The notes under the pieces are model-generated. The model saw nothing but the letters and a program-made list of their open reading frames with translations. It searched no databases and was not told the DNA's origin. Of a stretch of 46,736 nt of DNA, positions 2,874 to 22,632 are shown in pieces. Location of the stretch: NCBI GenBank assembly GCA_020719345.1, contig DYQJ01000002.1, positions 1 through 46,736 of the forward strand, in the 5' to 3' direction. Source of the stretch: Draconibacterium orientale. Lineage in GTDB: Bacteria; Bacteroidota; Bacteroidia; Bacteroidales; DYQJ01. The translations under genes and the position numbers were made by a program. How positions within the stretch are numbered: the stretch's first letter is position 1; every line of letters starts with the position of its first letter.

Positions 2874-3024
2874 GGCATCTTTCATAACCGCTTAAAAGTA
2901 GGTTACTATTTTTTCTTTGCGAAACTCTGCGAGAAATTGATAATCAAATATTTCACGCAGAATCTCGCAAAGGTAAAAACGCAAAATTTCGCAAAGAAGT
3001 GTAACCTAATAAATGAAACATGCC
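2874..3024 (+). mobile_element. MITE-like element, copy A (12-bp terminal inverted repeats GGCATCTTTCAT / ATGAAACATGCC)
   Basis: Near-identical, in inverted orientation, to 36027-36189. Internal modules are ctttgcgaaactctgcgagaaattgataatcaaatatttcacgcag. The six-frame ORF 2937-3125 is a translation of this repeat. Confidence 0.7.
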
Positions 3025-3058
3025 CTATTTACCTTATTTGTTTTTACACTCAAATAAT

Positions 3059-3107
3059 TTATACTATAAACGGCAACTTTGCCAAAGTTTTAATTACCAA
3101 ACAATTA
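3059..3107. repeat. Palindromic repeat family 2 (TTATACTATAAACGGCAACTTTGCCAAAGTTTTAATTAC)
   Basis: The same ~48-nt string recurs at 31457-31504. Partial copies lie at 31502-31530 and 33686-33747, and a related hairpin at 13716-13740. Confidence 0.65.
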
Positions 3108-3191
3108 CATAAGAATAAAAGTTAAAATTATACCCGTTTTGAGTATATATTGTTTTATTTGTACATTACCGTAAATAGTATATTTCAAAAA

Positions 3192-4124
3192 TTAGAAGTC
3201 TGTTTCTTGTTTCATTACCACTCCGCCTGTTTGCTCTACCCATATAGTAAATCGTTGTCCTTTGCAGAGGTCAACAAAAGTATGCGGGGCAGCTTCGTAA
3301 TAGCTTCGTATTCCGTTTAGTCGGGCTTCGCTGTCGTTATTAATAATTTGGAAAAGTTCTTTAACGCGGGTATTAAAAGTGTCATGATTCATTCCGTAAA
3401 CTCCTGCTTCTTTCTTATGAAATATGTATGGGACATTATTGGTGTCTGCCACATTAAGTTTTATACCTTCACTGCTGGGAACTTTGTTAGAAAAAATCTT
3501 AATAGGAAGGACTATATTTTGTTTATTTTCGGTTTCTATGAGACTATAATCAAAATTAATTACCTTAGATAACAAATAGATGTCATTACCTTTAATGGTG
3601 ATATTTTGTTGCTGGTCAATATAGTCGTTGATAGAGTTGTCAAAATAGCTGACCGTAAGCGAGGTAATCTCTTTTTCTTGGTCGTAGTTTGTAATTTCTA
3701 TAGTAGCGACTTTATAATTAGCATCTAATTGTTTTATAACTAATTGCATTTCTTGTATTTTGGTTTGATTTTCCATAAATTCGTTGACCGAGCTAATTGA
3801 TGCGGAGAATCCTACAATACCGGAAAGAAATAGCACTGTTATCAGCAGTACGGGAAGGTTCGCAAAAATTCGGTATCCTATTTCAGCTATTGTGCTAATA
3901 GTGATATAAGAAAATTCAGTTATTGGCATTGGCGGTTTATTTGCGGCACGATTTGCAAGTTTTCTTACTCTGACAGCGTCTGAGAGTTTAAAGACTAATA
4001 GAGTAAAAACGAGCAACATTGAAATAACTATTCCCTTAGTAGTAGTAAATAAAAAAATTAAGACCTGAGATACAGGACTAAGGAACCAGTTTATATTATT
4101 TAACATTTCTAAAGAGTCGTTCAT
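3192..4124 (-). CDS. Hypothetical membrane protein (N-terminal hydrophobic segments plus a soluble domain)
   Basis: 310-aa ORF starting 11 nt after the sensor kinase stop. At least three hydrophobic stretches (LIFLFTTTKGIVISMLLVFTLLVF, LPVLLITVLFLSGIVGF). No motif recognised. Confidence 0.6.
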   Translation of the reverse strand: MNDSLEMLNNINWFLSPVSQVLIFLFTTTKGIVISMLLVFTLLVFKLSDAVRVRKLANRAANKPPMPITEFSYITISTIAEIGYRIFANLPVLLITVLFLSGIVGFSASISSVNEFMENQTKIQEMQLVIKQLDANYKVATIEITNYDQEKEITSLTVSYFDNSINDYIDQQQNITIKGNDIYLLSKVINFDYSLIETENKQNIVLPIKIFSNKVPSSEGIKLNVADTNNVPYIFHKKEAGVYGMNHDTFNTRVKELFQIINNDSEARLNGIRSYYEAAPHTFVDLCKGQRFTIWVEQTGGVVMKQETDF

Positions 4125-4135
4125 AACTATATGTA

Positions 4136-6700
4136 TTATTGATTATTAATTTCTTTATTGATTTCGGTTAAAGCCAGATTCCATATACTTTTTAAATTAG
4201 ATATTTGTTCGGTTAATTCGTTAATATTGGTTTTATTGGTTGCTATTTCTTCTATTTTTTTTGCTATCTCTCTAAGTTCTTTTGCTCCTATATAATTGAA
4301 CGTAGATTTCAAAGTGTGCGCTATTGTTCTTAGGACGTCCCATTTTTCTTTATAAAACGATTTCTCCATTTCTATTAATTGGTTCGGTACATTTTGTTGG
4401 CAAAGACTTAAAATATAGTCTATTTTTTTCTTATCGTTCTTGTACATTTGTCTTAAGAGGGACAAATCTATAATATTATAATTATTATACAAAATAAGAT
4501 GGTCATTATTATTTTTTTCTTCGTCTCTTTTAAAATTTCTTTTTGTTAGACGATATATGTGTTGTATTATTTCTTTGTCAATTAGCGGTTTGGTTAAGAA
4601 GACGTTCATGCCTGCTTCTAAGCTTTTGTTTACTTCGTCTTTTATGGCATGCGCAGATAGTCCGATGATAGGAATTTGATTTTTTGGTGTCGGCATCTTA
4701 GTGCGAATGAATTTAGTTGCCTCGTTACCGTCAATGTTAGGCATTCTTATGTCCATGATGATAATATCATATTCCTGATTTTCTAACATTTTAATGGCAA
4801 TTTGTCCGTCTTGTGCGGTGTCAATTTTTATGTTAGGTTCGTAGAGGTTTAGCGTATCTAATAATAGTTTTGTATTTATTGCGTCATCTTCGGCGATTAG
4901 GATTCGCAAATTAGCGAAGTCCATCTTTTCTGCTTTATGTTCGGTTGTTTCTTCTTTTTGGGCATTTTCGTTTTCGTATTCATTAGAAATAATCGGTAGC
5001 GTGAAAAAAAATGTAGTTCCTTTTTTTTGTTCCGATTTGAACCATATTTTTCCGCCCATTTCTTCTATTAAGTGTTTACTTATAGATAGTCCGAGTCCCG
5101 TTCCGCCGGGGTTTCGCACCTCCGAGTCAAGAATTTGTCCGAATCGGCTAAAAATGATGTTGTGTTTGTCCTCCGGTATTCCTATTCCTGAGTCTTGCAC
5201 GTAGAATTTAATTGTGTTGTTATCAACATATTGATATCCAAATTCTATGTGTCCGGTTTCAGTGAATTTCAAAGAATTAGAGAGCAAATTAGTAAAAATT
5301 TGCTTAAAACGGTTGCAGTCGGTATAAATACCAAAATTAGGGTCTTGATTTTCTTTGAACAATCGTATTTCTAAGTGGTCTTTTTCTTTGAGTGCTTTTT
5401 GTTTATTTGTATTATCTAAGAGTTCGTCCAGTATTTTATTTACTCGGCATTTAGATTTTTTAATTAGTATTTGTCCGGCTTCTATCTTAGCTACGTCGAT
5501 GATGTCGTTAATTAGACTAAGCAAATTGTTTCCGCTGTTCTCTATGTAAGCGAAATATTCTTGTCGTTGGTTTTTAGAGAGTTCGTGTTTGGCGAGGAGT
5601 TTAGAGAATCCGAGTATAGCATTTAGCGGTGTTCGTATCTCATGCGAGATGTTGGCGAGGAATGCCGATTTCAGTCGGTCGGATTCTTCGGCTTTGTCCT
5701 TAGCAATGAGTAAGTTTTCAGCATAAGATTTTAGTTCTTGTTCAAATTTTTTTCTCTCCAATGCGATAGCGATATGCTCGGAGATGAATGCAAGTAGTTC
5801 CACGTCTTTTTCGGTGAAGACATTTTTTGTTTTGTAATTTTGCACTACCATGACTCCGATTGTTTTGTCTCGTGTTTTTAGCGGGACTCCGAGCCACGAT
5901 GGTGATGGTGTTCCTACCATTTCTACCTCGCCGTTTTTAATAAGTTCATTATCAATATATTCGGAGAGCAGAAGCGGTTTACCTTTTCTTCGGACGTAGT
6001 CTGTCAGACTTTTTTTGAGGGACTGCGGTTTTATTTTACTTATCTCGTCATATTTGTCCACGTAAAACGGGAAGCTGTAGATGTCATTAGCTTCGTCATA
6101 AAGTGCTACATAGAAATTTGTTGTGTCAATAATTTGAGTTAATTGCTGATGTATGAAGCTGACGAGTTCATTAATATTTGCTACCGAGTGGACGATTTCG
6201 TAGATGTCCAATAATATTTGCCATATTTTTACGGAGCGCGTAGTTTCAGTTATATCTATATAATAAACTATTGCGCCAATTATTTGATTATTATTATTGT
6301 AGAGCGGTCGATAGACATCTTTATAATAATATCTTTGTGCGTTCTTTAAATAATCTCCTACTTGGAAAAATTCTTCGCTGTTAAGCGCGCGTTTTAGCTC
6401 TAATTCTAAATTTCGGGTGTCGGTATAGTTTTTCAAGGTCTCTACAATATTCATTCCGGTAGTAATTTCTTTTCCGATAGTCGCTTTGATATGTTGCAAA
6501 TAATTGTTATTGAAAGCGATGAAGTTTAATTTTTTATCTACCGCGAAAATAATTGTTTCGTCTGGTATTTCTATGACCGAGTTGACTAATATCTGCAAGT
6601 CTTTTAAGTTCATGCTCTGCATCTCGTTTTTTTCATCTTGCAATAGCAAGACTTGTTTTTCCAGTTCGTTGATGCGTGTTATTAATTCGTTATTTTCCAT
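4136..6700 (-). CDS. Hybrid sensor histidine kinase (coiled coil-PAS-GAF-HisKA-HATPase-REC-HPt)
   Basis: H-box SHEIRTPLNAILGF. G-boxes DSGIGIP and GGTGLGLSI. Receiver IIIMDIRMPNIDG...LSAH. C-terminal HPt AHTLKSTFNYIGA. Confidence 0.9.
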   Translation of the reverse strand: MENNELITRINELEKQVLLLQDEKNEMQSMNLKDLQILVNSVIEIPDETIIFAVDKKLNFIAFNNNYLQHIKATIGKEITTGMNIVETLKNYTDTRNLELELKRALNSEEFFQVGDYLKNAQRYYYKDVYRPLYNNNNQIIGAIVYYIDITETTRSVKIWQILLDIYEIVHSVANINELVSFIHQQLTQIIDTTNFYVALYDEANDIYSFPFYVDKYDEISKIKPQSLKKSLTDYVRRKGKPLLLSEYIDNELIKNGEVEMVGTPSPSWLGVPLKTRDKTIGVMVVQNYKTKNVFTEKDVELLAFISEHIAIALERKKFEQELKSYAENLLIAKDKAEESDRLKSAFLANISHEIRTPLNAILGFSKLLAKHELSKNQRQEYFAYIENSGNNLLSLINDIIDVAKIEAGQILIKKSKCRVNKILDELLDNTNKQKALKEKDHLEIRLFKENQDPNFGIYTDCNRFKQIFTNLLSNSLKFTETGHIEFGYQYVDNNTIKFYVQDSGIGIPEDKHNIIFSRFGQILDSEVRNPGGTGLGLSISKHLIEEMGGKIWFKSEQKKGTTFFFTLPIISNEYENENAQKEETTEHKAEKMDFANLRILIAEDDAINTKLLLDTLNLYEPNIKIDTAQDGQIAIKMLENQEYDIIIMDIRMPNIDGNEATKFIRTKMPTPKNQIPIIGLSAHAIKDEVNKSLEAGMNVFLTKPLIDKEIIQHIYRLTKRNFKRDEEKNNNDHLILYNNYNIIDLSLLRQMYKNDKKKIDYILSLCQQNVPNQLIEMEKSFYKEKWDVLRTIAHTLKSTFNYIGAKELREIAKKIEEIATNKTNINELTEQISNLKSIWNLALTEINKEINNQ

Positions 6701-6705
6701 AGTTT

Positions 6706-9700
6706 TTAGAATTTCATTCTATCAAATAAGTGATGAATAATTTGTTTATCATTTACCAGGAGATTAAAATATTCAAATCTGTTAATAAAACCTACATGTG
6801 CGGCTTTGTCCACCGTAAGTTCTTCTACACTTTGAGGAACTTGTAAACCCTTAATAATGACGTCGTTTTTCATAAAAGCGGTGTCTCCTGTTTTTTTGTC
6901 GCTATAAATAATACTTCCTTTGATGAGTAGTATAATATCTTCGCTTCCGTTGTTGTTCTTAAAAAAGATTTTATCACCCTTTTTTTTGCGGCTGGTATTT
7001 ACCAGCGCAGCAAGTTTGACGAGCGATTTTTCGGGGACGGTATAAAACAAAAATATCCGTTTCAAGAGTTTGACTCGGTCAGACAGTACTCCGGCAGATT
7101 CGGTCTGCCTGAGGACATCTATGAGTTTTTGTTTATTAGCTGACATGTTTTTCAAATAATTAATGCACATTATAGGACTGTGTTCGTAAATAATTTTTGC
7201 TGCGGTAGAATAAATGAGCTCGGAGTTGTGATATAAAGTGACAAAAATTTCATCCGGTATATCATCTTTATTAATAAGTTTCAATATATTACGGGCATTT
7301 TCTTCAGTCCAAGTAGTGTTGTCATCATATTGAACTATTATTTTTTCTTCGGTTGCGTCATTTCCGTTCTTTTTGAGTAATTTACCAAAAAGTTCTAATG
7401 CTTTGGTTTGTGTCCAGATATCCACTTTTTTATAATCTTTTAAAATAATATCTTTGAGGCGTTCGTTAAATTCCAATTCAGGCACATAAAAATATGGCAT
7501 GAGTTTTTTTATACGTTGCTTAACTGTTATTTTATCAAACAGCGGAATTATAACATGTTTAATATCTTTTGCGATGAAGTTGTCAATTATTTCCAGCGCA
7601 AATATAGTATTTTCACCGATAATATTTGTTTTTATCAAGTCTATTGTTTCAGGCGGATGGATAAAACTTAATAAATAAAATAAAAGTTCAAAAGTATTTT
7701 CTTTTTCCAGGTCAAGTGATTGCATCAGTTTTAGCGTGTTTTTTTGCGATTCTATGTCTTTAATAGAAACGAGTAGCCACAAAATATTTTCAGATATCTC
7801 CACAATTTTATTTTTAATAATAGGTGTCGTCTCTTGATTTGCTGTATATTCACAATAGCTAAGCCCGATGATGACAGCACGTTGCACCTCTCTGTCGGGA
7901 TAGTTGATGTGAGATATTAAATAATTCTCTGCAACATTAAAGCCAATTTTGGCATATATTTCTATTATTTTTAACAAGATAGTATTATCTGCTTTTTCAT
8001 CAAAATATTTATCTATAACAGGAATAATATCATTTCCTATTTCAACAAAAATATTTATGAGCAAATTATTATATTCGGGATTTTTAAATATTTCTACTAA
8101 TTTTATGAGTAGGAGTTTAGTTTTTCGTTTGCTTGCAATTTTGATGGCAGCGAGTTTTATTGCTTTATCTTCTTCTTCTAAGAGTCGTAGAATTATTGGC
8201 TCGTCGTTCTCCATCTCGTTTTTAAATAAGTACTTAGTTAATTTTATCTTTTCGCGGTATATGTCGGAGTTGATAAATGTCTCTAATTCTTTTTGTGTTA
8301 TGCTGTTAATTTCTGTATAGTCAAGGTGAAACAACGAAGTAAGAATAAGTTTATGTAGTTCGCGTTCTTTAAAATCAATATTGTTACCAATTTGTTCTAT
8401 TGTATTGCTAATTCGTTTGTTATAAGTAGGGTCAATATTTTTAAGTATCATTTTTCGTATCAAACGGTCATCTACTTTGAGTAAGAAATTGGCATACGCT
8501 TCTAAGCTTCGCGGATATGTTTGCGCCAAGACGACAATAGAAAATTTTGCTGCATTAATATCTTCGCCGAGCAGATATTTTTCAAGTATCTGACTGCCAA
8601 AGACTTCTTCGCCGGTGAGTTCAATTTTAAACATCTTCTTTTCAGCGAGAATTTGTCTCAGTTTTTCTTTATATGCGTTATATAATCTAAATGTAACAAA
8701 TCCCCAAAAGACGATAATAGGCAATACCATTAGTGGAAAATAATTGAGTTTAAAGACTCCGTCTTCGGTTAATAATTTAGTTATCAAGAGTAAGATGCCT
8801 CCGGCAATTGCGATAGAAAGCTGCATAACTACTCCTATTCGTGTCTGCACAAATAGTTTTTGTCTCTCCGGCAGAGTTTGATACAAGACATTGAAAGCTG
8901 GGTCATCTAATCCGCGTCTGAGTATTCTCTCCAACGATTTATTTAAAGTTATAAAAGCTAAGAAAGCGATGCTTGTAATTCCAAAAATTGTCTCACTTAG
9001 GTACGCCAGAATCATCAGTGTCGCAATGGAAATAGGCATTATAACTAATCCCAATTTGACTCCCCAACGACTGAGCAGTCTACTGGACAAAATAGATAAC
9101 AGCAGTTCGCCAACTTTCAAAGCGCCGAAGACGATTGATAGAAACAAGGCAACTTGTTTTTTATCACTAAAAATATGCTCGTGATTTTTTATAGTAACCA
9201 AAAACGCATAATCAGATATGTATATTGCAATGGTAGAGAGAGTTGCCGAGAGAATAATAAAGACGAAGAAACGTTTTCGCAGCAATCCCCATAAACTTTT
9301 ATCTTGTATTTCGGTTTCTTCTGAGATTTCTTCGGCTTTAACTTCTTTTGGGGAGTCGGGAAATTTTTTGAAAATTATTATCACTACAATAAAGCTTATT
9401 ACAAGTCCTATCGTTCCAATGATAATCAAATCATACTGGTGCGAAAGCGATTTGAGGAACAACGGAATTAAAAAATAACCGATGATAGATGCAATAATTC
9501 CCCCGATATTGATAATACCAAAATATTTTTTTACTTGAATTAGGTTTAACAGTCTGATAACCAGACCACCGGTAACGATAGCCACCAGCGCAATAATGGG
9601 CCAAGCCCAGATGAAGACAAAAAAGCTAAGCAATTTTTGATAATAGCGATATTCTTCTATGCTGACGTCGCGCTCGTATATTTCAAATATAGTTAATCCG

Positions 9701-14888: not shown

Positions 14889-15030
14889 TGGTTCTTCTAT
14901 GATTTTTGTGAGATACCTGATTTTTTAAGAAATTTAATTTTAAATCTTGCGTGAAACTTTTGATTATCAATTTCTCGCAGAGTTTCGCAGAGTTTCGCAA
15001 AGTTTTCCACAAAAGTCATTCAAGAACCAT
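14888..15030. mobile_element. MITE-like element, copy C (~23-bp imperfect TIR ATGGTTCTTCTATGATTTTTGTG / CCACAAAAGTCATTCAAGAACCAT)
   Basis: TIR matches 20/23. The interior gcgtgaaacttttgattatcaatttctcgcagagtttcgcagagtttcgcaaag equals the reverse complement of the modules in copy A. It abuts the Smr stop codon. Confidence 0.65.
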
Positions 15031-15047
15031 ATTAATTTAATTTGTTA

Positions 15048-15749
15048 TCAGACCGTTAAAATATTATTTCCAATTTCATCTATTATTATTTTCTGATTTT
15101 CAAAGTTTTCAACTATAGAGAAACCATTATAAAACGGTTCAATTTGCAAATAGCGTTGCCGGTATAATTCGTTTCCTTGTTTATCAATATGGAACCAACC
15201 GTTTACGTCTTTTGCGGTAGCATAATCTTTGTGAAATATTCCTAAATCAAGAAAATATTTTCCGTTTAGGTTGTTTCCTTGTTTATCAATATGTTTCCAG
15301 CCGGTTTGATTTTTCACACAACAATAACCGTCTTTGTAATCTCCTGCATAAAAATATTCTTCGGTGTAGATTCGGTTGCCGTTCTTATCAAGATGAAAAT
15401 ATTTATTGTTTTGTGTTCTGACGGTGCAAACATTTTCCTGATAATTTCCGCACCAAGAATAATTTTCGTTGTAAATTCGTTCTCCATTTTCATTGATATG
15501 AAACCAATCATTTTGATTATCAATCACTGCGGCACAATTGCAATAAAAACCGAAGCATTTTAAATAACGTTCTTTGTATAATTCGTTTCCATTTATATCA
15601 ATATGAAACCAGCCCGATTTGTCTTTTACAGGCGCCAGACCGGGTGCGTGAAATTTCATAACTTTTTCAAATTCTTTATCAAAAAGTTTATTGTTTTGAA
15701 AAAGAAAAAACTTGCTGTCCTGTGATATTTGTATGTCGTTGTATTTCAT
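15048..15749 (-). CDS. WG-repeat (KWG-like) protein with no signal peptide
   Basis: About 8 repeats of WFHI(D/N)xxGNxxY and WKHIDKQGN. The ATG overlaps the upstream stop (ATGA at 15746-15749). Confidence 0.75.
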   Translation of the reverse strand: MKYNDIQISQDSKFFLFQNNKLFDKEFEKVMKFHAPGLAPVKDKSGWFHIDINGNELYKERYLKCFGFYCNCAAVIDNQNDWFHINENGERIYNENYSWCGNYQENVCTVRTQNNKYFHLDKNGNRIYTEEYFYAGDYKDGYCCVKNQTGWKHIDKQGNNLNGKYFLDLGIFHKDYATAKDVNGWFHIDKQGNELYRQRYLQIEPFYNGFSIVENFENQKIIIDEIGNNILTV

Positions 15750-17179
15750 TTGTTTAGCAATATATTTTTAACTAAAGAAATTTGATTTACATTTAATAGA
15801 CACGAAAGCAAATATTTTTCAATACCACCTTCTTGCTCAATTATTTCTAAAATAATTTGCAAATGTTTTAAATCCACGTCCATTTCGCTTGCTAAATAAT
15901 CGTTGTTAATGCTTTGTAAATTTGCGTTAGAAAGTAAATGAAACAACGTAATTACAAAACCTGTTCGGTCTTTACCTGCCAAACAATGTATGCAAATTGA
16001 ATTATCACTGTTGGCGATAATTGTTTCTATTATTATTTTAACACTTGATTTACAATCTAATACAAAATATTTATACGCAATTTCAACGTTTGTTCCGGTA
16101 TTAACTAAATTTTTAAATTCAAAACTTTGTTTCCATGGGTTAAAAGGTGCGCGAACAATGTTATATTTTGATTTTAAATTTTCGGAATAACTATTTTCAT
16201 CAATTTCTCTGTCGGCTCTTAAATCTATGATTGTCTTTATGTTAAGTTTTTGAAGCGTCTCAATTAAAATGTTTTCTTCTTTGATAAGAGAAAGTGCTGA
16301 GCTACGAAAAATAAATCCGTTTTTGATTTTTTTATTAAATTTGGAAATATCTCTAAAATTCCAAAAGAAATCGCGTTTGTAGATTGTTTCAAGAAAGCTA
16401 ATTATGTCATTTGTTTGTAGTTGTAGGTCAAATTTTGAATTAGCAATTTCTAAATATTTTATAAATAAATCGAGTAATTTTCGTTTGTGCCAATTAGCCA
16501 GACGCAAATCCATTGTTCCTAATTTTTCAATTTCTAAGTTTTGTTTGTAACTTATCGAGGTTAAAAAATTATTTGGCATGTAATCGTGTTCGGTATTTCC
16601 TTGGCAAAAATAAACAAGTCGGACAACTGCATTCAAAGCGTGTGAAAATAAAACATTGAATTTATAGCCGTCACTCTTAGAATGATTATAAGAACAGCCC
16701 TCAAAACGATTTTGAAATTCTGTGATTAAATTTTTTATTTTGTAAGAGAATTCTTTGGCGAAATTTTTTTGTTTTAAAAGCGTGATATTATTCAGATATT
16801 CCAAAATAGAATTAGATTTATCAAAAATGATAGTGTTTTCCGGCACTTTAATTTCAGAGCCAAGAAAATATTTATCAATTTCTGTTTTTGAATAGCAAAC
16901 AAATATTTCGGTAATCATAAAAATTTCCGAAAAATAAAAACACCATTTATTTTTTTCAGACAAAAATAACATATATTTTAGTTCGTCTTGAAATTCTTTT
17001 TTTAGGTTATCTACAAAAAGATTATTATCAAAATCTTTTGTTACAATTATTTGATAGTCAATATCGCTATTAGGTTTAGGTGTTCGGCGACCAAAACTTC
17101 CTATGAGCAAAACAGTTTCTATTGTTTCTGTTTTAGCGAAAAAAGTATTTAATTTTTTTATTAAATTATATTGTATCAT
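15746..17179 (-). CDS. Fusion protein: Pol-beta-superfamily nucleotidyltransferase (ANT/KNTase-like) plus C-terminal Cys-based protein-tyrosine-phosphatase-like domain
   Basis: The N-terminus has IGSFGRRTPKPNSDIDYQIIV (GSx..DxD NTase motif). A helical middle region follows. The C-terminus has IIDLRADRE and CIHCLAGKDRTGFV (HCx5R(T) P-loop). Confidence 0.7.
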   Translation of the reverse strand: MIQYNLIKKLNTFFAKTETIETVLLIGSFGRRTPKPNSDIDYQIIVTKDFDNNLFVDNLKKEFQDELKYMLFLSEKNKWCFYFSEIFMITEIFVCYSKTEIDKYFLGSEIKVPENTIIFDKSNSILEYLNNITLLKQKNFAKEFSYKIKNLITEFQNRFEGCSYNHSKSDGYKFNVLFSHALNAVVRLVYFCQGNTEHDYMPNNFLTSISYKQNLEIEKLGTMDLRLANWHKRKLLDLFIKYLEIANSKFDLQLQTNDIISFLETIYKRDFFWNFRDISKFNKKIKNGFIFRSSALSLIKEENILIETLQKLNIKTIIDLRADREIDENSYSENLKSKYNIVRAPFNPWKQSFEFKNLVNTGTNVEIAYKYFVLDCKSSVKIIIETIIANSDNSICIHCLAGKDRTGFVITLFHLLSNANLQSINNDYLASEMDVDLKHLQIILEIIEQEGGIEKYLLSCLLNVNQISLVKNILLNK

Positions 17180-17313
17180 ATTTTAATTGAGTTTATAAAA
17201 ATGTTAGTAATTGTTTTATTTTTGTTTTTTTTTAAAATGATTGAAACTGCTGTCTTTTCAAAATAATTCTCACGTGTTATTTTCATAATTATTTATTTTT
17301 TTTAGTAAAAAGT

Positions 17314-17344
17314 TTTGTTGTTATGTATAAATGTATTATCTTTG
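17314..17344 (+). promoter_or_regulatory. Consensus Bacteroidota promoter on the + strand (TTTG-N19-TAtcTTTG), unit 1
   Basis: tttg at 17314-17317 and tatctttg at 17337-17344. This is one of three copies of the same ~70-nt element. Confidence 0.55.
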
Positions 17345-17350
17345 TTCTAA

Positions 17351-17434
17351 TAAAAAAGATTATGAAAGGCAGTGGCTTTCACGCAAAACCGGCACCGAGA
17401 ACTGTTCTGTCGGTTTTCTTTTTTATTTTTTTTT
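17351..17434 (+). ncRNA. Candidate small RNA 1 (promoter to stem-loop plus T-run)
   Basis: aaaaccg(17385-17391) pairs with cggtttt(17411-17417) and is followed by cttttttattttttttt. No credible ORF. It converges on the 3' end of the frameshifted small gene. Confidence 0.35.
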
Positions 17435-17825
17435 ACGCAAATCAAAAGCCGTTAATATAAATTTTTTATTTTTTCCTTTCCACTCAGTTATTATTACAAC
17501 TCTAAACATATCACTTTCAAGTAAAATTTTTTGTTGTTTCTTTTGCTTTAACAAGATTCCCTAACTTTGCTATTATAGGTATAAAGTCTTCAATATTAAA
17601 TCCTAATTCTTTAATTTCGTGTCCATGTTTTTCGTAAATATGTTTTAAACCGTACCCTTTATTATTTTTATCATTTTCGCCCCAAACAATATCAATATAA
17701 CCTATGTCTTCTCTGTATAAAGCATTTATACATTCGCCTTCTTGCACCTTTAATAAAAGTTTTATTGCTTCCTTCGGTTTGTTTTTAAATTCCGTATAAA
17801 CCGTTCCAAATTCGTTTTTTTCCAT
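17423..17825 (-). pseudogene. Small H-x-KH protein paralogue 1, interrupted by a 1-nt frameshift in an A6/T4 run
   Basis: The ATG at 17825 is preceded by a -7 box TAtcTTTG (rc of 17847-17854). The reading frame stops at 17517. The +1 frame continues as ILLESDMFRVVIITEWKGKNKKFILTAFDLRKKK to 17423, which is homologous to the C-terminus of paralogue 2. Confidence 0.6.
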
Positions 17826-17990
17826 TTTATCATTTTTAATTTCCTGCAAAGATATATTATTTTTCAACAGTTTGATTTCTATTTGCAACAGTTTGGGCGT
17901 AAATGACATGATTTTCATATATTATTTTTTTAGTAAAAAATTTTGTTATTAATTATAAATGTATTATCTTTGTGCTAATAAAAAGTTGTT
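17578..17990. repeat. Tandem direct repeat, copy 1 (period 662 bp; near-identical to 18240-18652)
   Basis: Same sequence at offset 662 with few mismatches. It covers the 5' two-thirds of the small gene, its leader, and the + strand promoter element. Confidence 0.85.
17942..17972 (+). promoter_or_regulatory. Consensus Bacteroidota promoter on the + strand (TTTG-N19-TAtcTTTG), unit 2
   Basis: tttg at 17942-17945 and tatctttg at 17965-17972. Confidence 0.55.
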
Positions 17991-18092
17991 TTTCGGAGCA
18001 GTGTTCCGTTAGTAAAATTAATGGCGAATGCGCTTTCGTTAATTCCAATTTTTCAGAAACCTGTAATTTATTTTACAGGTTTTTTATTTTTT
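17979..18092 (+). ncRNA. Candidate small RNA 2 (~110 nt) ending in a 10-bp stem intrinsic terminator
   Basis: aaacctgtaa(18057-18066), a 6-nt loop, then ttacaggttt(18073-18082), followed by tttattttttat. The T-run is only on the + strand. The stop codon of the convergent gene (18068-18070) lies in the loop. Confidence 0.4.
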
Positions 18093-18487
18093 ATCGGTCT
18101 CAAATCAAAAGCACTCAATAAAAATTGCTTGTTTTTTCCATTCCATGTTGTTTTAATTATCACTCTAAACATTTTACCTTCTAAATATATTTTATCATCT
18201 TTTTTTGACAAAAATAAGTTTCCAAATTGCACGACAATAGGTATAAAATATTCAATATCAAATCCTAATTCTTTAATTTCGTGTCCATGTTTTTCGTAAA
18301 TATGTTTTAAACCGTACCCTTTATTATTTTTATCATTTTCGCCCCAAACAATATCAATATAACCTATGTCTTCTCTGTATAAAGCATTTATACATTCGCC
18401 TTCTTGCACCTTTAATAAAAGTTTTATTGCTTCCTTCGGTTTGTTTTTAAATTCCGTATAAACCGTTCCAAATTCGTTTTTTTCCAT
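18068..18487 (-). CDS. Small H-x-KH protein paralogue 2 (intact; possibly a barnase/EndoU/colicin-E5/RelE-like PBECR-type nuclease)
   Basis: The likely start is MEKNEFG at 18487, with a -7 box TAtcTTTG 21 nt upstream (rc of 18509-18516). Contains GYGLKHIYEKHGHEIKELGF and a C-terminal LLSAFDLR. The family assignment is tentative. Confidence 0.6.
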   Translation of the reverse strand: MEKNEFGTVYTEFKNKPKEAIKLLLKVQEGECINALYREDIGYIDIVWGENDKNNKGYGLKHIYEKHGHEIKELGFDIEYFIPIVVQFGNLFLSKKDDKIYLEGKMFRVIIKTTWNGKNKQFLLSAFDLRPIKNKKPVK

Positions 18488-18652
18488 TTTATCATTTTTA
18501 ATTTCCTGCAAAGATATATTATTTTTCAACAGTTTGATTTCTATTTGCAACAGTTTGGGCGTAAATGACATGATTTTCATATATTATTTTTTTAGTAAAA
18601 AATTTTGTTATTAATTATAAATGTATTATCTTTGTGCCAATAAAAAATTGTT
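18240..18652. repeat. Tandem direct repeat, copy 2
   Basis: See 17578-17990. A third partial copy containing only the promoter element lies at 17281-17352. Confidence 0.85.
18604..18634 (+). promoter_or_regulatory. Consensus Bacteroidota promoter on the + strand (TTTG-N19-TAtcTTTG), unit 3
   Basis: tttg at 18604-18607 and tatctttg at 18627-18634. The downstream ~100 nt contain tacggct/agccgta pairing but no clear terminator. Confidence 0.45.
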
Positions 18653-18735
18653 ACGGCTCTAAAAACGCTGTCCTTACTGACTACGAAAAATCACAGTATC
18701 GGAAAGAAAAGAGAAACAAGCCGTAGTTAATTGTT

Positions 18736-19116
18736 TCAAATGGGTGCGTTCCTTTGCCATAGCAATTTTTTATTTTTTAGATAGCTATTTCGCATTGGAG
18801 TTGCCGTCATCACCAAATAATATTCTCCATCATATTTATAAGTTAGTTCTACTACCGCAATATTACTTTTATGTTCATCTTCCACGATTAAAAATATAGA
18901 GTTGTTTTTTCCTTGCCTAATAACATTAAAATTTATTGTGATAATTTTAATATAATCTAATGGATTTAAACCTAATGCCTCTAACTCTTTACTATGTTTT
19001 TTATCAACATGAGTAATACTTTTTTCATTTGCAATAATTTTATCTGGCTTGTTTCTTATTATTTCCGCAATTTCTTGCGTAATTTCACCAACCACATCAA
19101 ATTCTTTATTTTCCAT
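18736..19116 (-). CDS. Small H-x-KH protein paralogue 3 (divergent member of the same family)
   Basis: Starts MENKEFD at 19116 behind the same leader (aattaaaaatgataaaATGgaaaa) and a -7 box (rc of 19138-19145). THVDKKHSKELEALGLNPLDYIKII aligns with KHIYEKHGHEIKELGFDIEYFIPIV. TATPMR aligns with LSAFDLR. Confidence 0.6.
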   Translation of the reverse strand: MENKEFDVVGEITQEIAEIIRNKPDKIIANEKSITHVDKKHSKELEALGLNPLDYIKIITINFNVIRQGKNNSIFLIVEDEHKSNIAVVELTYKYDGEYYLVMTATPMRNSYLKNKKLLWQRNAPI

Positions 19117-19153
19117 TTTATCATTTTTAATTCTCGGCAAAGATATTTTTCAT

Positions 19154-20173
19154 TCATGGCTTTCGCATATTACAAGTTTTACATAATGTTTTTTGTTTGT
19201 AATTTTTCACTAAATCAATGTAAACAGAACTATTTAAAATAGATGTAAGTGATTGATTTTGAATGTTTCCAAAAAGTCCTAATGTTTTTCGTAAATTGTC
19301 GGGGGCGCAGCAAGGTGAAATATCTCCTGTTGCAGAAATCCACAATTCACGAGTTAAAAACGGACACTCGTAATTTTCCTGTATTTCTTTATTTTCATTA
19401 AGCTGTAAACGAAAAAAGTTTTCTAAAATTACTTTTTTGCCGTTTTTTCGTTTGAATTTTTCTGCCGAATTTTTTGCTGTTTCAACTATCGTATTCCATT
19501 GATTAATAGTTTGTTCTGTTTTTTTAAAAGATAATTCTTCCAATTCTTTGTAATGTGTCCAAACATGATGTCCTTTTATTCTGTCAATATCCAAATCTGC
19601 GGCTAATTGTATTATGTCGCTGATTTGGTGCATATTGCTTTGTAAATAAGTAATTTGAAAAGTTAAAGTGCAATAATTTCCGCTTTGCTCAAAAATTGAA
19701 TTTCTTATTTTTGAAAATGTTTTGATATTTTCAATTTGTTTGTTGAAATTCAAACCTTGCATAATACCTTCGGCTGTTTTTTCTGTTGCTCCGTTTAGCG
19801 AAAATTTAATATCTTTTGTAACGGGAATTATTAAATTAGCCCATTGGTCTGCTGTTTTTCGCGGAGAAGTTCCGTTTGTTGTCAAATTAAGTTTGATATT
19901 GTATTTTTTGCACAATTCCAAAAAAGTTTCAAAATGTTCGTAAAGCAATGGCTCTCCCATTGTAGTTGGAATAATTTCCTGAATATTCAATTCTTTTGCT
20001 TGCGTAAAAATATTTTCTAACCACTCTTTTGGCATTAAACGTTGTTTAAGTCCCGTTTCACGAAACAAATTTTCTTTAAAATTGCTTAAAAGACTGTGTT
20101 CTTCGCACATAATACAATGCAAATTGCATAATTCGGGATTAGTATCAACGGTTATTCTAAACAAAGATTTCAT
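19154..20173 (-). CDS. Radical SAM enzyme with C-terminal SPASM/twitch-like Cys cluster
   Basis: CNLHCIMC is a CX3CX2C motif. The C-terminal CPFLTRELWISATGDISPCC matches Cx12Gx4C, followed by CKTC. It overlaps the upstream glycosyltransferase gene by 17 nt. Confidence 0.8.
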   Translation of the reverse strand: MKSLFRITVDTNPELCNLHCIMCEEHSLLSNFKENLFRETGLKQRLMPKEWLENIFTQAKELNIQEIIPTTMGEPLLYEHFETFLELCKKYNIKLNLTTNGTSPRKTADQWANLIIPVTKDIKFSLNGATEKTAEGIMQGLNFNKQIENIKTFSKIRNSIFEQSGNYCTLTFQITYLQSNMHQISDIIQLAADLDIDRIKGHHVWTHYKELEELSFKKTEQTINQWNTIVETAKNSAEKFKRKNGKKVILENFFRLQLNENKEIQENYECPFLTRELWISATGDISPCCAPDNLRKTLGLFGNIQNQSLTSILNSSVYIDLVKNYKQKTLCKTCNMRKP

Positions 20174-21452
20174 TTTTCGGTATCAGTTTTTTGTAAATTA
20201 ATATTAATTCCTTACAATGTTCCAGAATATTTGGAACTTCTCCGTTTTCGGAATATAAATAACCGCGAGTACCTAACTGTTTCATTACTTGCGGATTTAG
20301 TATTGCAAATTTCATTTTTTCAGATAAATCATCTGGGTTTCTATGCTCAAATAATAAACCGTTTTCATTGTGATTAACATATTCTTTCATTCCACCAAAA
20401 TTGGAAGTAATAACGGGAATTTTACACGCTTGCGCTTCGTGGATAACCAGAGGCGAATTTTCTCCCCAAATTGAAGGCACAACAATAGCATCAATATTTG
20501 AAAAAACGTCTGACGCCAAATTATGATTAATATATTCTCCAACAAATTCAACTTTGTTTTTATATTTTGTTACTAATTTTTTCAAATATTGTGTGTATTG
20601 ATTTTCTCTTCCCCAGATTTTTAAAGTGGCTTTTTCATTTATTTTAGAAAATGCGGTAATCAATAAATCTAAACCTTTTGCAGGAATGTGAGTTCCAATG
20701 TAACCAAAAGTAAATATTTCGTTTCTTTTTTGTGAAACAGGTGTCAAATAGTGCAGCGGAAATCCGTAATCAAGATAGACGATTTTTGATTTAGGAACAT
20801 TAAAATCATTTATAAATCTGTTCATTAAGTATTTTGAAGGCGCAATAAACAAATCAACTTTTTCAATTATAGATTTTGTTTGATTCATGCGAGAATTTAT
20901 CCACGAAGTCCAATAGTCCATATCTCTCTCATAATCATCTTTTTGTCCTGAGAAATAGCGGTTATAACAATTTTCGGCACATTTTCTGTTTTCCTGCAAA
21001 TCACAAAGTTGATGAAAATTTTGATTGCCGAAATTGACTTGTAAAAATTGTCCGCGTGGACACATCAGCCAAAAATCGTGTAGCGTAAAAACAATAGGAA
21101 TATTTTGTTTCTTCAGTTCATCAATTATTCCGGTAGAAAGGTGGTTAAGATGCCCGATGTGAGCAACATCGGGTTTTGTATCTTGCAATAATTTTGCGAA
21201 ATTTTCATCTAATTTATGGTGTCTGTATCCGTCTTTTCCGCGTGGAATATTTACAAAATATAGCATTAAGCTTTCATTTTCTATTTGTTTACGAATTAAA
21301 AAATCAGGTTCGTAAATGTTTTCTTCTCTTGTAAAAATAATTATTTCGTGTTGCTTTGCCAATTCATTACAAATAGATTGACTGTACACTTCCGAACCTG
21401 CATTATAATTTGGCGGATATCCGTGAATTATTTTTAATATTTTAAGTTTCAT
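20157..21452 (-). CDS. Glycosyltransferase, GT4 (GT-B) family
   Basis: 431 aa. Begins ILKIIHGYPPNYNAGSEVY, and the C-terminal WGENSPLVIHEAQACKIPVITSNFGGMKEYV resembles the EX7E region. Confidence 0.8.
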   Translation of the reverse strand: MKLKILKIIHGYPPNYNAGSEVYSQSICNELAKQHEIIIFTREENIYEPDFLIRKQIENESLMLYFVNIPRGKDGYRHHKLDENFAKLLQDTKPDVAHIGHLNHLSTGIIDELKKQNIPIVFTLHDFWLMCPRGQFLQVNFGNQNFHQLCDLQENRKCAENCYNRYFSGQKDDYERDMDYWTSWINSRMNQTKSIIEKVDLFIAPSKYLMNRFINDFNVPKSKIVYLDYGFPLHYLTPVSQKRNEIFTFGYIGTHIPAKGLDLLITAFSKINEKATLKIWGRENQYTQYLKKLVTKYKNKVEFVGEYINHNLASDVFSNIDAIVVPSIWGENSPLVIHEAQACKIPVITSNFGGMKEYVNHNENGLLFEHRNPDDLSEKMKFAILNPQVMKQLGTRGYLYSENGEVPNILEHCKELILIYKKLIPKNEIFV

Positions 21453-21504
21453 CTTTATTTAAGTTTTTTCGGTTTTACTTTTTTGAGATGTTACAAAAAG
21501 ATAA

Positions 21505-22632
21505 TCAATTAGTATATAAAATATAGTTTTGATATATTTTAGCAATTCCTTCCTGCATGGTTATTTTAGGTTTCCAGCCGTATCCGTTAATTTTTTCTAC
21601 GTTAAGTAATTTTTGTGGTGTTCCATCTGGTTTGTTGGTATCCCATTCTATGTTACCTTCAAATCCGACAGTATTTTTTATCATTTCGGCGAGCTGCAAT
21701 ATGGTTAAATCTTTTCCGATTCCTATGTTTATATGAGTATTTTTAATTTCTGGAGTTGTCATCGGATAAGAATAATCAGTGATGTTATATTCTTTGAGTA
21801 ATATGTCCGTAAAATTTAAGTTCTTCATAATAAACACGCATGCATCTGCCAAGTCGTTAGCATGCAGAAATTCGCGTTTCGGAGTTCCAGTTCCCCATAG
21901 TTTTACTTCGGCAGTTTTATTAGTTCTAATTATTCCGTATTTATGTAAAATATCTAATATACAATTCATATCACTTTCGCCGGTTACTTTCTCTATGGGA
22001 TATTTGTTCAAATCTTGTCGTATTGTGTCCCAATTTTCATTCATTAAAGCTTTCGCAAGGTGCATTTTTCTTAGTATTGCGGGTAGTACGTGCGATTTTT
22101 CCAAGTCAAAATTATCATTATATCCGTACAAATTAGTAGGCATTACGGCGATGAAGTTTGTTCCGTATTGCAAATTGTAGCTTTCTACTGTTTTTATGCC
22201 GGCAATTTTAGCGATGGCATAAGGTTCATTGGTGTATTCTAATGTGTCGGTGAGTAAATATTCTTCTGCGATAGGTTGTTTGCAAAGTTTAGGATATATG
22301 CACGAGCTTCCTAAGAACAACAATTTTTTAACGTCATACTTATAAGCACAATGAATAATATTACTTTGAATCATAATATTTTCGTAAATAAACTGTGCGC
22401 GATAAGTATTATTTGCAACTATACCACCAACTTTAGCTGCTGCTAATACGACATATTCGGGTCGTTTGCTTTTAAAAAAGTCTTCTACTTGTGATTGGTT
22501 TATCAAGTCATATTCTGGATATGGAGTGTAAACTAAGTTGTTATATCCGTCTTCGTGTAATTTTCTTACAATAGCACTACCTACAAGTCCGGTGTTTCCG
22601 GCTACATAAATTTTAGATTTTTGTTCCATCAT
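21505..22632 (-). CDS. fcl: GDP-L-fucose synthase (GDP-4-keto-6-deoxymannose 3,5-epimerase/4-reductase)
   Basis: VAGNTGLVGSAI, AAAKVGGIVANNTY, LLFLGSSCIYPK, NEPYAIAKIAGIK, MPTNLYG and KPDGTPQKLL align along the length of E. coli Fcl. A ~40-aa insertion is present. Confidence 0.9.
   Translation of the reverse strand: MMEQKSKIYVAGNTGLVGSAIVRKLHEDGYNNLVYTPYPEYDLINQSQVEDFFKSKRPEYVVLAAAKVGGIVANNTYRAQFIYENIMIQSNIIHCAYKYDVKKLLFLGSSCIYPKLCKQPIAEEYLLTDTLEYTNEPYAIAKIAGIKTVESYNLQYGTNFIAVMPTNLYGYNDNFDLEKSHVLPAILRKMHLAKALMNENWDTIRQDLNKYPIEKVTGESDMNCILDILHKYGIIRTNKTAEVKLWGTGTPKREFLHANDLADACVFIMKNLNFTDILLKEYNITDYSYPMTTPEIKNTHINIGIGKDLTILQLAEMIKNTVGFEGNIEWDTNKPDGTPQKLLNVEKINGYGWKPKITMQEGIAKIYQNYILYTN

Follow-up and report, generated by a model that had tools for sequence, protein, structure and literature searches.

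A chromosomal array of PBECR-clade genes with convergent structured RNAs in Draconibacterium orientale

Three paralogous genes of the PBECR clade lie in tandem in Draconibacterium orientale, and the 3' flank of every copy carries, on the opposite strand, a perfect Bacteroidota promoter followed by a structured RNA and a terminator (consensus matches). On the sequence evidence we favour, with somewhat better than even confidence, the reading that the locus is an array of RNase-toxin/RNA-antidote modules which exchange cassettes made of a protein C-terminus and its RNA. The convergent RNA is probably the missing antidote of the PBECR1 family. The window analysed here is a stretch of 46,736 nt (contig DYQJ01000002.1). 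The array is chromosomal, and phage genes are absent within 7 kb on either side of it; no tRNA or tmRNA was found at the locus.

The three genes and their mosaic structure

ORF analysis of the window places the three paralogues in one orientation on the minus strand. Copy 3 (18736-19116) is a PBECR3-like gene encoding 126 aa, whose translation contains the motifs THVDKKH, in the His helix, and TATPMR. Copy 2 (18068-18487) is an intact solo PBECR1 gene of 139 aa, counted from the ATG of MEKNEF. Copy 1 is split. Its 5' part (17517-17825, minus strand, 102 aa) encodes PBECR1 residues 1-85, followed by 17 out-of-frame codons and a stop, and corresponds to PBECR1 profile positions 1-66; its 3' part (17423-17554, minus strand) continues in a shifted frame (LLKQKKQQKILLESDMFRVVIITEWKGKNKKFILTAFDLRKKK) and matches positions 61-103 of the Pfam PBECR1 profile. 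The original prediction of three co-oriented genes of about 125-140 aa was thus right about the orientation and about copies 2 and 3, but copy 1 is frameshifted.

The split is due to a 1-nt insertion near 17556, seen as an alignment gap. It is not a sequencing error, because the identical frameshift recurs in L001, a contig of an independent strain that aligns at 99.76% identity with 9 mismatches and without gaps. A programmed frameshift was also considered and judged unlikely, since it would have to be +1 and a slippery site is absent. Copy 1 is therefore a probable pseudogene; possibly it represents a decaying toxin whose RNA, W_a, has been kept intact.

The leader AATTAAAAATGATAAAATGGAAAA is common to all three copies. 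The -7 box TATCTTTG lies exactly 21 nt upstream of the ATG in each of them (17847-17854 for copy 1, 18509-18516 for copy 2 and 19138-19145 for copy 3, all on the minus strand), in agreement with the shared leader and the spacing of about 21 nt that had been predicted. Longer ORFs starting with MKIMSF (133 and 170 aa for copies 1 and 2) were rejected as genes because the extension covers the -7 box; these starts are further disfavoured by the homologues, most of which begin near MEKNEF. The copy 2 ORF stays open to 18580, and this extension overlaps the promoter and lacks conservation.

With PF18809 (PBECR1) the 5' part of copy 1 scores 47.2 bits and copy 2 56.1 bits (E 5.7e-15), both above the Pfam gathering score of 27.6 bits. 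Judged by these profile scores, copies 1 and 2 are members of PBECR1, and the PBECR-type affiliation that had been guessed by eye was correct. PBECR domains are predicted to be widespread phage RNases, and the motifs picked out in that guess are their defining features; PBECR1 is marked by a His in the N-terminal helix of the BECR core and by a C-terminal Thr or Ser (Iyer et al. 2017, PMC5512222). Both traits are present here. H62 and H67 are invariant in 34 PBECR1 sequences and are located in helix 59-73 of the AF2 model of copy 2. The C-terminal LL(S/T)AFDL is conserved in the alignment of these 34 relatives, with Ser in copy 2 and Thr in the shifted frame of copy 1. Homologues of copy 2 (n=195) are mostly 135-155 aa long. 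The endoribonuclease activity of PBECR1 is a prediction, here as in the literature.

Copy 3 is best described, on profile comparisons, as a distant PBECR3-like relative, a divergent sister group within the PBECR clade. The protein itself reached 15.4 bits with PF18812 (PBECR3; E 0.018), under the cut-off of 30, and 23 of 49 copy 3 relatives match this profile (E up to 0.01; best 4.4e-7). Its relatives (n=282) comprise solo proteins as well as domains within proteins of 1500-5400 aa. In BLASTP copy 3 and copy 2 align with an E of 5e-5, the matched positions including H..KH..E(L/I)..LG and (T/S)A...R, and hhalign relates the two families over the core with a probability of 94.6% (E 6.5e-8). This bears out the predicted common H-x-KH core. 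Within the copy 3 family H41 is invariant, H36 nearly invariant, and TA.P.R is present.

The AF2 models of copies 2 and 3 have pLDDT values of 88.4 and 92.6. Their topology of a pre-alpha helix, an alpha helix and four beta strands, as modelled, matches the description of the colicin-like BECR group (bioRxiv 10.64898/2026.08.28.747851). A Foldseek search of the PDB yielded no match with E < 0.001, the weak matches being RelE, HigB and YoeB; HMM searches against the PDB returned no significant relative. In a BFVD structure search nine phage proteins were found (E 1e-10 to 2e-5). Both protein profiles matched the BECR toxin CdiA-CT of S. marcescens BWH57 weakly at the His motif (E 0.25 and 0.85). 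The PADLOC defence models gave no match to the three proteins, and an NCBIfam search of the proteins nothing significant. Homologues do occur in mobile contexts, with phage, prophage and conjugative-element surroundings all represented.

Copies 1 and 2 are mosaics. The stretches 17597-17990 (unit 1) and 18259-18652 (unit 2) form a direct repeat with a period of 662 and differ by 3 mismatches in 394 nt. This recently homogenised block, which includes the repeat D2 and the leader, is made up of 165 nt of upstream non-coding DNA and the first 76 codons, taking the likely ATG as the start. Beyond it the identity of the two copies falls to 0.64-0.74. Near-identity over the first ~320 nt with a period of 662, followed by sharp divergence in the last ~45 codons, had been predicted. 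Period, near-identity and divergence are as described, but the block measures 394 nt, of which 165 nt are non-coding, and the divergent part extends over ~58 codons. Recombination on a variable C-terminus, the explanation offered at the time, is supported both within the window and across the protein family.

Two further repeats belong to this structure. D2, a 67-nt repeat, is present in three copies (17290-17356, 17918-17984 and 18580-18646), which carry the promoters of the RNAs W_a, W_b and W_c, respectively. Between the divergent promoters lie two 14-nt direct repeats, CAAACTGTTG(C/A)AAA, 21 nt apart (17861-17895, minus strand; repeat family D6); the pair recurs at 18523-18557 and looks like a candidate operator.

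The convergent RNAs in the window and beyond

That no protein partner is encoded between the copies was part of the original prediction, and no ORF was found in the spacers. The spacers are not empty, however: on the plus strand each of them contains a structured RNA together with its promoter and terminator. The strict pattern TTTG-N19-TAnnTTTG has four matches in the window against 0.64 expected, and three of the four are the RNA promoters (TTTG-N19-TATCTTTG, plus strand): that of W_a at 17314-17344, convergent to copy 1, that of W_b at 17942-17972, convergent to copy 2, and that of W_c at 18604-18634, convergent to copy 3.

W_a, the partner of copy 1 (17352-17436, plus strand), is supported by the covariance model R1 (61.7 bits), by a terminator scan and by a fold z-score of -2.4. 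Its three-way-junction core spans 17352-17424. The P3 hairpin also serves as the terminator, and the T-run reaches 17436, overlapping the stop of copy 1. For W_b, the partner of copy 2 (17981-18096, plus strand), the same three lines of evidence apply (R1 58.4 bits, terminator scan, fold z-score -5.0); here the core (17981-18053) is followed by an intrinsic terminator (18055-18084) and a T-run over the last codons of copy 2. W_c, the partner of copy 3 (18640-18785, plus strand), belongs to a different RNA family and was recognised by the inverted repeat I3 and by its fold. Its closing stem pairs 18639-18657 (5') with 18756-18774 (3') and is followed by a T-run, and over its last 50 nt W_c is complementary to the end of the copy 3 coding sequence. 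Promoter, closing stem and T-run are kept downstream of copy 3 relatives in L007, L088, L234/235 and L236; the evidence for the copy 3 RNA comes from five independent loci and partly overlaps coding sequence.

The association of the other RNA with PBECR1 is nearly obligate. A convergent -7 box is located 40-200 nt past the PBECR1 stop in 46 of 49 non-redundant Bacteroidota loci, most commonly at 78-88 nt; the figures are 4 of 49 for a box on the same strand and 18 of 106 for control gaps. R1 matches next to 72 of the 78 assessable PBECR1 loci, at the expected position. Of the six misses, four are divergent variants that keep this architecture, and in the remaining two PBECR1 forms the N-terminal domain of a larger protein. 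The multidomain cases L048 and L085 have no RNA, and PBECR1 domains in polyvalent phage proteins apparently do without it; essentially every solo PBECR1 examined has one. R1 also recognised loci outside its seed (L089-L092, E ~1e-8). The RNA is a single unit, downstream of the gene and on the opposite strand, and some loci have two different units per gene. In phages, prophages, conjugative elements and chromosomal islands alike, its position, orientation and distance to the PBECR1 stop are fixed, while the flanking genes are otherwise unrelated.

Strong covariation indicates that the PBECR1-linked RNA folds into a conserved three-way junction with kissing loops. Across 67 distinct sequences P3 is 99.7% paired, and covariation scores 0.757, compared with 0.257 for shuffled and at most 0.17 for slid controls. 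The loop-loop pairs are 100% complementary, these tertiary pairs having been chosen post hoc from a mutual-information scan. Whereas the stems covary, the unpaired GUAAAA, the CAG of the P2 loop and the CGA of the P3 loop are conserved; variation in the RNA falls on paired stems and not on exposed, guide-like segments. The strand is signalled by 88 G.U pairs against 36 A.C pairs and by T-runs (at least 7 of 8), which occur on the RNA strand in 51 of 70 cases and on the gene strand in 3 of 70.

The RNA family is previously undescribed and absent from Rfam 15. None of the 4227 models of that release matched the window at its gathering score, and relaxed searches returned chance-level matches only (E up to 10 for the window, up to 1 for five related loci). 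An RNA partner of PBECR1 is mentioned neither in the 2017 description (PMC5512222) nor in the literature searched. A pattern scan of viral contigs, a set with just three PBECR1 loci, yielded chance matches in GC-rich coding DNA.

The RNA as partner of the PBECR protein

No conserved protein neighbour of PBECR1 was found among 37 loci, the best family occurring in 6 of them. The RNA is also the part of the pair that persists. Among 57 metagenome copies of the RNA found by pattern, 15 are without an intact PBECR1, and at least four RNA-only copies (L204, L210, L213 and L218) lie beside remnants of a deleted PBECR1. Two orphan RNAs adjoin integrase genes (L193 and L231), and one RNA adjoins a solo LPD3 gene. 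Loss is thus asymmetric, the RNA outlasting the PBECR1 gene.

The distances between RNAs correlate with those between the C-terminal thirds of the proteins (Mantel r 0.69, partial 0.59) and less with those of the N-terminal parts (Mantel r 0.47, partial 0.16). In 37 of 37 cases RNA type A is accompanied by a Trp ahead of (L/I)LTAFD; with types B and C this residue is Phe or Leu in 18 of 20. The difference between L009 and L032 is confined to the C-terminal third, and each of them has the same pair of RNA types. By these comparisons the type of the RNA follows the protein's variable C-terminal third, with few independent events, since the RNA types are clades; physical linkage alone could explain this link.

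A possible interpretation, and the one we favour, is that three modules of two parts each are arrayed in tandem at the locus. The protein component would be a small cytoplasmic PBECR-clade protein, a predicted metal-independent endoRNase with an active site made up of the His-bearing helix and the C-terminal Ser or Thr. The RNA component, convergent and ~75-145 nt long, with its own Bacteroidota promoter and with a terminator that overlaps the stop codon of the protein gene, would be the dedicated neutraliser (antitoxin or immunity factor) of the cognate RNase. RNase activity, toxicity, transcription, neutralisation and its mode are what we infer, whereas the family assignment of the proteins, the existence and strand of the RNA, its near-obligate association with PBECR1, the asymmetric loss and the mosaic structure are borne out by the data. 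Most likely the three-way junction with its kissing loops attaches to the protein in the manner of a type III antitoxin; the RNA may in addition pair with the toxin mRNA at its 3' end, as in type I systems. The array would have grown by duplication and been reshuffled by recombination in two conserved regions flanking the variable part, one formed by the leader and the 5' two-thirds of the gene, the other by the 67-nt promoter repeat. By this, the C-terminal third and the RNA would move together as a cassette.

Part of the evidence would also suit an RNA that acts on the message and makes no contact with the protein, in the manner of type I systems, and keeps expression low by pairing with the 3' end of a read-through PBECR mRNA or through colliding transcription. 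Nearly all loci have the stop codon within the RNA terminator, and in the case of W_c the overlap with the copy 3 coding sequence amounts to 50 nt. The gene strand is usually without a strong T-run of its own, so that transcription of the mRNA should continue across the RNA gene, giving a message complementary to the RNA over its full length. The layout resembles the 3'-overlapping type I pairs of Bacillus prophages. Yet an RNA acting purely as cis-antisense could have any sequence, since whatever it is, the target will be complementary to it, and in this family unpaired nucleotides, the three-way junction and the loop-loop pairs are conserved while the stems covary. Nor would one expect orphan RNAs to persist after deletion of the toxin gene, or one gene to be served by two different RNA units, as in some loci. 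No cognate-specific signal emerged for trans pairing between the RNA and the 5' part of the mRNA; this removes one possible antisense mode and has no bearing on protein binding. We regard an antisense-only action as unlikely.

The RNA could instead be a working partner or substrate, which PBECR1 processes or carries as a ribonucleoprotein directed at the RNA of phage or host. That the association is nearly obligate and that the RNA co-varies with the putative substrate-binding beta-sheet suits a cofactor as well as an inhibitor, and type III toxins also process their own RNA. However, intact RNA genes beside deleted or frameshifted PBECR1 genes are hard to square with a cofactor, and the variable parts of the RNA sit in paired stems where a guide would expose them; this makes such a role distinctly improbable. 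Least credible to us, and very improbable, is that the two are mere neighbours, the RNA being a regulatory RNA, terminator, insulator or attachment-site feature of mobile elements and PBECR an enzyme that cuts only foreign RNA and needs no antidote. The orphan RNAs beside integrase genes and the one beside the solo LPD3 gene would fit this, as would the targets proposed for PBECR, which are host or CRISPR RNAs and not self RNAs (Iyer et al., PMC5512222). Against it stand the fixed placement of the RNA relative to the PBECR1 stop amid unrelated genes and the match between RNA type and protein C-terminal type.

A wider form of the favoured toxin/antidote reading can be put forward tentatively, as a conjecture that may well not hold in full. 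Solo PBECR RNases and their convergent RNAs would constitute a new toxin/RNA-antidote class, in which the RNA recognises a variable beta-sheet face, specificity changes by cassette swap, much as toxin and immunity pairs are exchanged among polymorphic toxins, and orphan or tandem RNAs serve as an immunity repertoire against PBECR effectors arriving with other phages and conjugative elements. If the RNA is an antidote, a BECR-fold RNase would for the first time have an RNA antitoxin; the RNA would also be a new fold specifically recognising a protein, and the pair would exemplify how protein-RNA specificity can diversify in cassette style. In itself the RNA is a new structured family, one that is common on the mobile elements of Bacteroidota in gut and rumen.

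Comparison with known systems

The locus shares with the solo phage PBECR1 proteins (PF18809, PMC5512222) the HMM score, the helix His, the C-terminal Ser or Thr, the length of ~140 aa and relatives on mobile elements; it differs from them in being a chromosomal array of three with one frameshifted copy, and in having an RNA partner of which the publications searched make no mention. As in PBECR3 (PF18812), the copy 3 family has an H....H..EL..LG helix and a TA.P.R strand, whereas copy 3 itself stays under the cut-off. With polymorphic toxins (CdiA-CT/CdiI, Rhs) and colicins D and E5 there are several parallels: BECR-fold RNases, a variable C-terminal module co-inherited with an adjacent immunity determinant, and orphan immunity elements with toxin remnants. 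Unlike these, the proteins described here are solo domains without a delivery or secretion region and without a protein immunity gene, and immunity would be conferred by the RNA.

The gene arrangement recalls type I systems. In txpA/RatA and bsrG/SR4 of Bacillus subtilis prophages, convergent antisense RNAs overlap the toxin genes at their 3' ends. Here, too, a convergent small RNA has its own promoter and overlapping 3' ends, and 3'-end complementarity exists by construction (the last codons for W_a and W_b, 50 nt for W_c). But the type I toxins are small hydrophobic membrane peptides, whereas the present ones are soluble alpha/beta proteins of 126-139 aa, modelled with high confidence, and the RNA has a conserved tertiary architecture which lies mostly outside the overlap.

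Like the type III systems (ToxIN, CptIN, TenpIN), the locus combines a predicted endoRNase with a structured non-coding RNA, lacks a protein antitoxin and belongs to phage-related mobile elements. The toxin folds differ, BECR here and ToxN-like there; ToxN/AbiQ, CptN or TenpN were not matched in PADLOC and Pfam. The type III RNA consists of tandem repeats upstream of the toxin on the same strand, in contrast to the single opposite-strand unit with its own promoter found here. The conserved tertiary structure of this RNA and its co-variation with the protein C-terminus suggest that it, too, would bind and inhibit its toxin.

The array and its proteins

The three paralogous genes lie in tandem on the minus strand, in a window with a G+C content of 32.7%. 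Copy 3 (18736-19116) encodes 126 aa and copy 2 (18068-18487) encodes 139 aa from the ATG of MEKNEF, with the ORF remaining open to 18580. Copy 1 is split by one extra base near 17556. The 5' part (17517-17825) starts with 85 residues that agree completely or almost completely with copy 2, after which 17 unrelated residues lead up to a stop; the missing C-terminus LLKQKKQQKILLESDMFRVVIITEWKGKNKKFILTAFDLRKKK, which ends at 17423, is read in another frame. An independent metagenome contig of a closely related strain (L001) aligns gap-free to positions 14893-18652, differing at 9 of 3760 nt; thus the frameshift is real. As the original prediction of a shared -7 box about 21 nt upstream of the ATG had it, TATCTTTG precedes the ATG by exactly 21 nt in all three copies, and the leader and first codons are common to them. 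Copies 1 and 2 show 3 mismatches in 394 nt between 17990 and 17597, a block that runs through a 67-nt repeat (D2) and the leader into the gene as far as codon 76; outside it identity falls to 0.64-0.74. The earlier description of a paralogue cluster with near-identity followed by divergence was therefore right in substance, but had overlooked the frameshift and is corrected as to the extent of the identity.

Two 14-nt direct repeats, CAAACTGTTG(C/A)AAA, 21 nt apart, are found at 17861-17895 and 18523-18557 (minus strand), in the interval separating the PBECR promoter from the divergent promoter of the RNA. They resemble an operator; one of them is altered in L001.

The guess of a PBECR-type family was borne out for copies 1 and 2, which lie far above the Pfam gathering score of PBECR1 (PF18809); the 43 aa that copy 1 encodes in the shifted frame align with the C-terminal portion of this profile. 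Two PHROG families with profiles of polyvalent-protein size also match, and solo PBECR versions are present in phages (PMC5512222). H62, H67 and the S/T of LL(S/T)AFDL are conserved across 34 relatives. In the AlphaFold model of copy 2 (pLDDT 88.4), an extra beta-alpha-beta unit precedes the helix that bears the His, another helix and four strands; phage members of the colicin-like BECR group have been described with this layout (bioRxiv 10.64898/2026.08.28.747851). The model matches the predicted structures of nine phage proteins, for the most part domains within large ones. Among solved structures none was significantly similar by Foldseek or sequence profile; RelE/HigB/YoeB matches were low-scoring, and both protein profiles weakly touch the same His motif in CdiA-CT of S. 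marcescens BWH57, which has a BECR fold according to its depositors. The array proteins are new members of a known family, and their RNase activity is a prediction.

Copy 3 is a more distant relative. It has only a weak PBECR3 match in Pfam and aligns with copy 2 at E 5e-5 in BLASTP. An exhaustive HMMER search yielded 282 relatives, many of them domains within proteins of 1500-5400 aa; PBECR3 was matched by 23 of 49 relatives. Profile-profile comparison linked this family to PBECR1 with a probability of 94.6%, and the model of copy 3 (pLDDT 92.6) has the same topology as that of copy 2.

Homologues were found in mobile contexts, as anticipated. A copy 2 relative in a T4-like phage adjoins Gp23 and the prohead protease, prophage relatives adjoin integrases, Bro-N and lysins, and others stand directly 3' of giant polyvalent proteins of integrative elements. 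The array in the window differs from these loci in its non-phage neighbours, with no phage gene within 7 kb. On one side, immediately upstream of copy 3, radical-SAM/SPASM, GT4 glycosyltransferase and GDP-sugar epimerase/reductase-like genes form an overlapping cluster (19154-22632, minus strand); the -7 box of copy 3 (19138-19145) lies within 20 nt of the radical-SAM stop at 19154. On the other side, directly downstream and behind the first D2 copy, a 477-aa Pol-beta-type nucleotidyltransferase/tyrosine phosphatase fusion overlaps the gene of a 233-aa WG-repeat protein by 4 nt (15048-17179, minus strand). The fusion has weak matches to the MntA antitoxin nucleotidyltransferase, PADLOC PDC-S09 and cyclase models, and may belong to the same conflict island. 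Housekeeping genes follow further out. The closest copy 3 relative (66% identity; L007 229-1900, from the same metagenome as L001) has a Cas2-like gene and a ParE-type toxin pair as neighbours, which gives the locus the look of a defence island.

Convergent RNA genes

D2 occurs three times (17290-17356, 17918-17984 and 18580-18646), once in the 3' flank of each gene. Its plus strand carries TTTG-N19-TATCTTTG, the complete promoter consensus known for Bacteroidota. The whole window holds four matches to this pattern against 0.64 expected, and three of them are the D2 sites. Intrinsic plus-strand terminators follow two of the three promoters and extend over the stops of copies 1 and 2; after the third promoter come a long 5'/3' closing stem and a T-run, overlapping the last 50 nt of copy 3. 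The statement that no protein partner is encoded between the genes thus holds for proteins, but a probable RNA partner in the spacers had been missed.

Generality was tested on 49 non-redundant Bacteroidota genome loci with a solo PBECR1. A convergent TAnnTTTG box lies 40-200 nt past the PBECR1 stop in 46 of them, most commonly at 78-88 nt; the box was found on the gene strand in 4/49 and in 18 of 106 control gaps of the same loci. The aligned, putatively transcribed stretches share a closing stem P1, hairpin P2, a GUAAAA junction, hairpin P3 with a 13-nt loop, a UUUC junction and a terminator hairpin that includes the last codons of the protein gene. G.U pairs exceed A.C pairs (88 vs 36), and strong T-runs follow the structure in 51/70 cases on the RNA strand vs 3/70 on the gene strand. 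The strand opposite the gene is accordingly the functional one.

In a MAFFT alignment of 29 examples, two of them from the window, P3 is 99.4% paired with compensatory changes at every pair. The covariance model R1 built from it has just two matches in the window (17352-17424 and 17981-18053) and 88 in 699 kb of related loci, all convergent and PBECR1-adjacent except three extra copies and one weak match (in L016). R1 matches 72 of 78 assessable loci. Four of the six misses (L026, L044, L050, L055) have a more divergent RNA of the same layout, and the other two (L048, L085) are N-terminal PBECR1 domains of 626-aa and 764-aa proteins. Four loci outside the seed (L089-L092), where PBECR1 lies 3' of a polyvalent protein, were matched at the expected position with E about 1e-8. 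The covariation score on 67 distinct sequences was 0.757, compared with 0.257 for column shuffles and at most 0.17 for slid partners. Three P2-P3 loop-loop pairs, picked post hoc from a mutual-information scan, keep their complementarity in all sequences while using 2-5 pair types. In L051 an additional PBECR1-type RNA (3000-3489) faces a solo LPD3 (PF18798) gene convergently and lies some 500 nt upstream of the PBECR1 gene of that locus.

Rfam 15 holds no family matching the RNA, and our literature searches returned no paper tying PBECR or BECR RNases to an RNA partner. The RNA may be among the thousands of unnamed candidates of large-scale screens; neither the conserved RNA partner nor the module design appears to have been described before. 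A Bacteroidales prophage-like locus (L011) contains two adjacent near-threshold matches to Acido-Lenti-1 of Rfam (7071-7186, minus strand; 35.6 and 33.5 bits, gathering score 37).

The RNA of copy 3 belongs to a different family, examined at five independent loci that encode copy 3 or its relatives (window, L007, L088, L234/235, L236). In all five there is a -7 box in convergent orientation, accompanied by a TTTG-like -33 element, then a 5' strand (A)AGAATTGTT... pairing with the complement of conserved C-terminal codons, and a T-run; the interior varies among subgroups. These sequences support the same design principle for copy 3, the case being thinner and partly confounded by coding constraint.

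The RNA as a candidate antidote

It is well established that BECR RNases of colicins, contact-dependent inhibition and toxin-antitoxin systems are accompanied by an inhibitor (PMC5512222). Next to solo PBECR1 genes no protein family is conserved, the most frequent one being present in 6/37 loci; an RNA is present at every solo PBECR1 examined. Loss is asymmetric, the RNA outlasting PBECR1. Among 57 assessable metagenome copies from a pattern scan for one RNA type, a convergent PBECR1 accompanies 42 and is absent from 15, and at least four of these 15 (L204, L210, L213, L218) adjoin a PBECR1 cut to a few N- and C-terminal codons. Truncated, frameshifted or internally deleted genes that keep their RNA occur in L020 (3970-4207), L082 (3961-4291) and L050 (about 5600-6070), and frameshifted copy 1 retains a high-scoring RNA.

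RNA and protein variants are also paired. RNA distance correlates more closely with distance in the C-terminal third of the protein (r 0.69, partial 0.59) than in its N-terminal part (r 0.47, partial 0.16). In 37/37 cases with RNA type A the residue immediately preceding the (L/I)LTAFD strand, the predicted catalytic strand, is Trp; with types B and C it is Phe or Leu in 18/20. One of the two exceptions (L032) carries, like L009, two tandem RNAs of types C and A after a single PBECR1 gene (4395-4540); the two proteins have identical N-terminal parts and opposite C-terminal types, which would fit each toxin type having its own RNA. The window offers a natural experiment of this kind in copies 1 and 2, with identical 5' parts and different C-termini and RNAs. 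These correlations are supportive and not decisive, since physical linkage alone could yield them.

Taken together, the missing protein neighbour, the asymmetric loss and the paired variants incline us slightly towards an antidote of PBECR, whatever its mode of action; that the RNA is a cofactor or substrate of PBECR seems improbable. As to the mode, we favour protein binding: the tertiary architecture and the unpaired nucleotides of the RNA are conserved, although a purely cis-antisense RNA requires no particular sequence, so that a protein would recognise it in the manner of type III systems, PBECR being the simplest candidate. Antisense control of the PBECR mRNA is also plausible, since RNA and gene overlap at their 3' ends and the gene strand has no good terminator, so that transcription of the mRNA probably continues through the RNA gene. 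Cognate-specific pairing with the mRNA 5' region was not found.

Proposed module exchange and comparison with known systems

The unit has conserved borders, the leader with the 5' coding part on one side and D2 on the other, and a variable middle made up of the protein C-terminal third and the RNA body. The originally suspected recombination on a variable C-terminus agrees with these mosaic units and with database proteins that have identical N-terminal parts and different C-termini. L044 contains two tandem PBECR1-RNA modules, and truncated PBECR1 copies occur in other genomes as well. In L001 (1-900) a second copy-2-type C-terminus and the RNA convergent to copy 2 lie upstream of copy 2, whose leader has copy-3-type bases; another assembly (L093) breaks 184 nt past copy 3. 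Either strains differ in the array or it is difficult to assemble.

For the system as a whole we infer an RNase toxin with an RNA antidote. Its likeness to type III systems would lie in protein-RNA recognition, established there and proposed here. The C-terminal third and the RNA body would be exchanged as a cassette between conserved flanks, much as polymorphic toxin-immunity pairs are, except that an RNA would stand in for the immunity protein.
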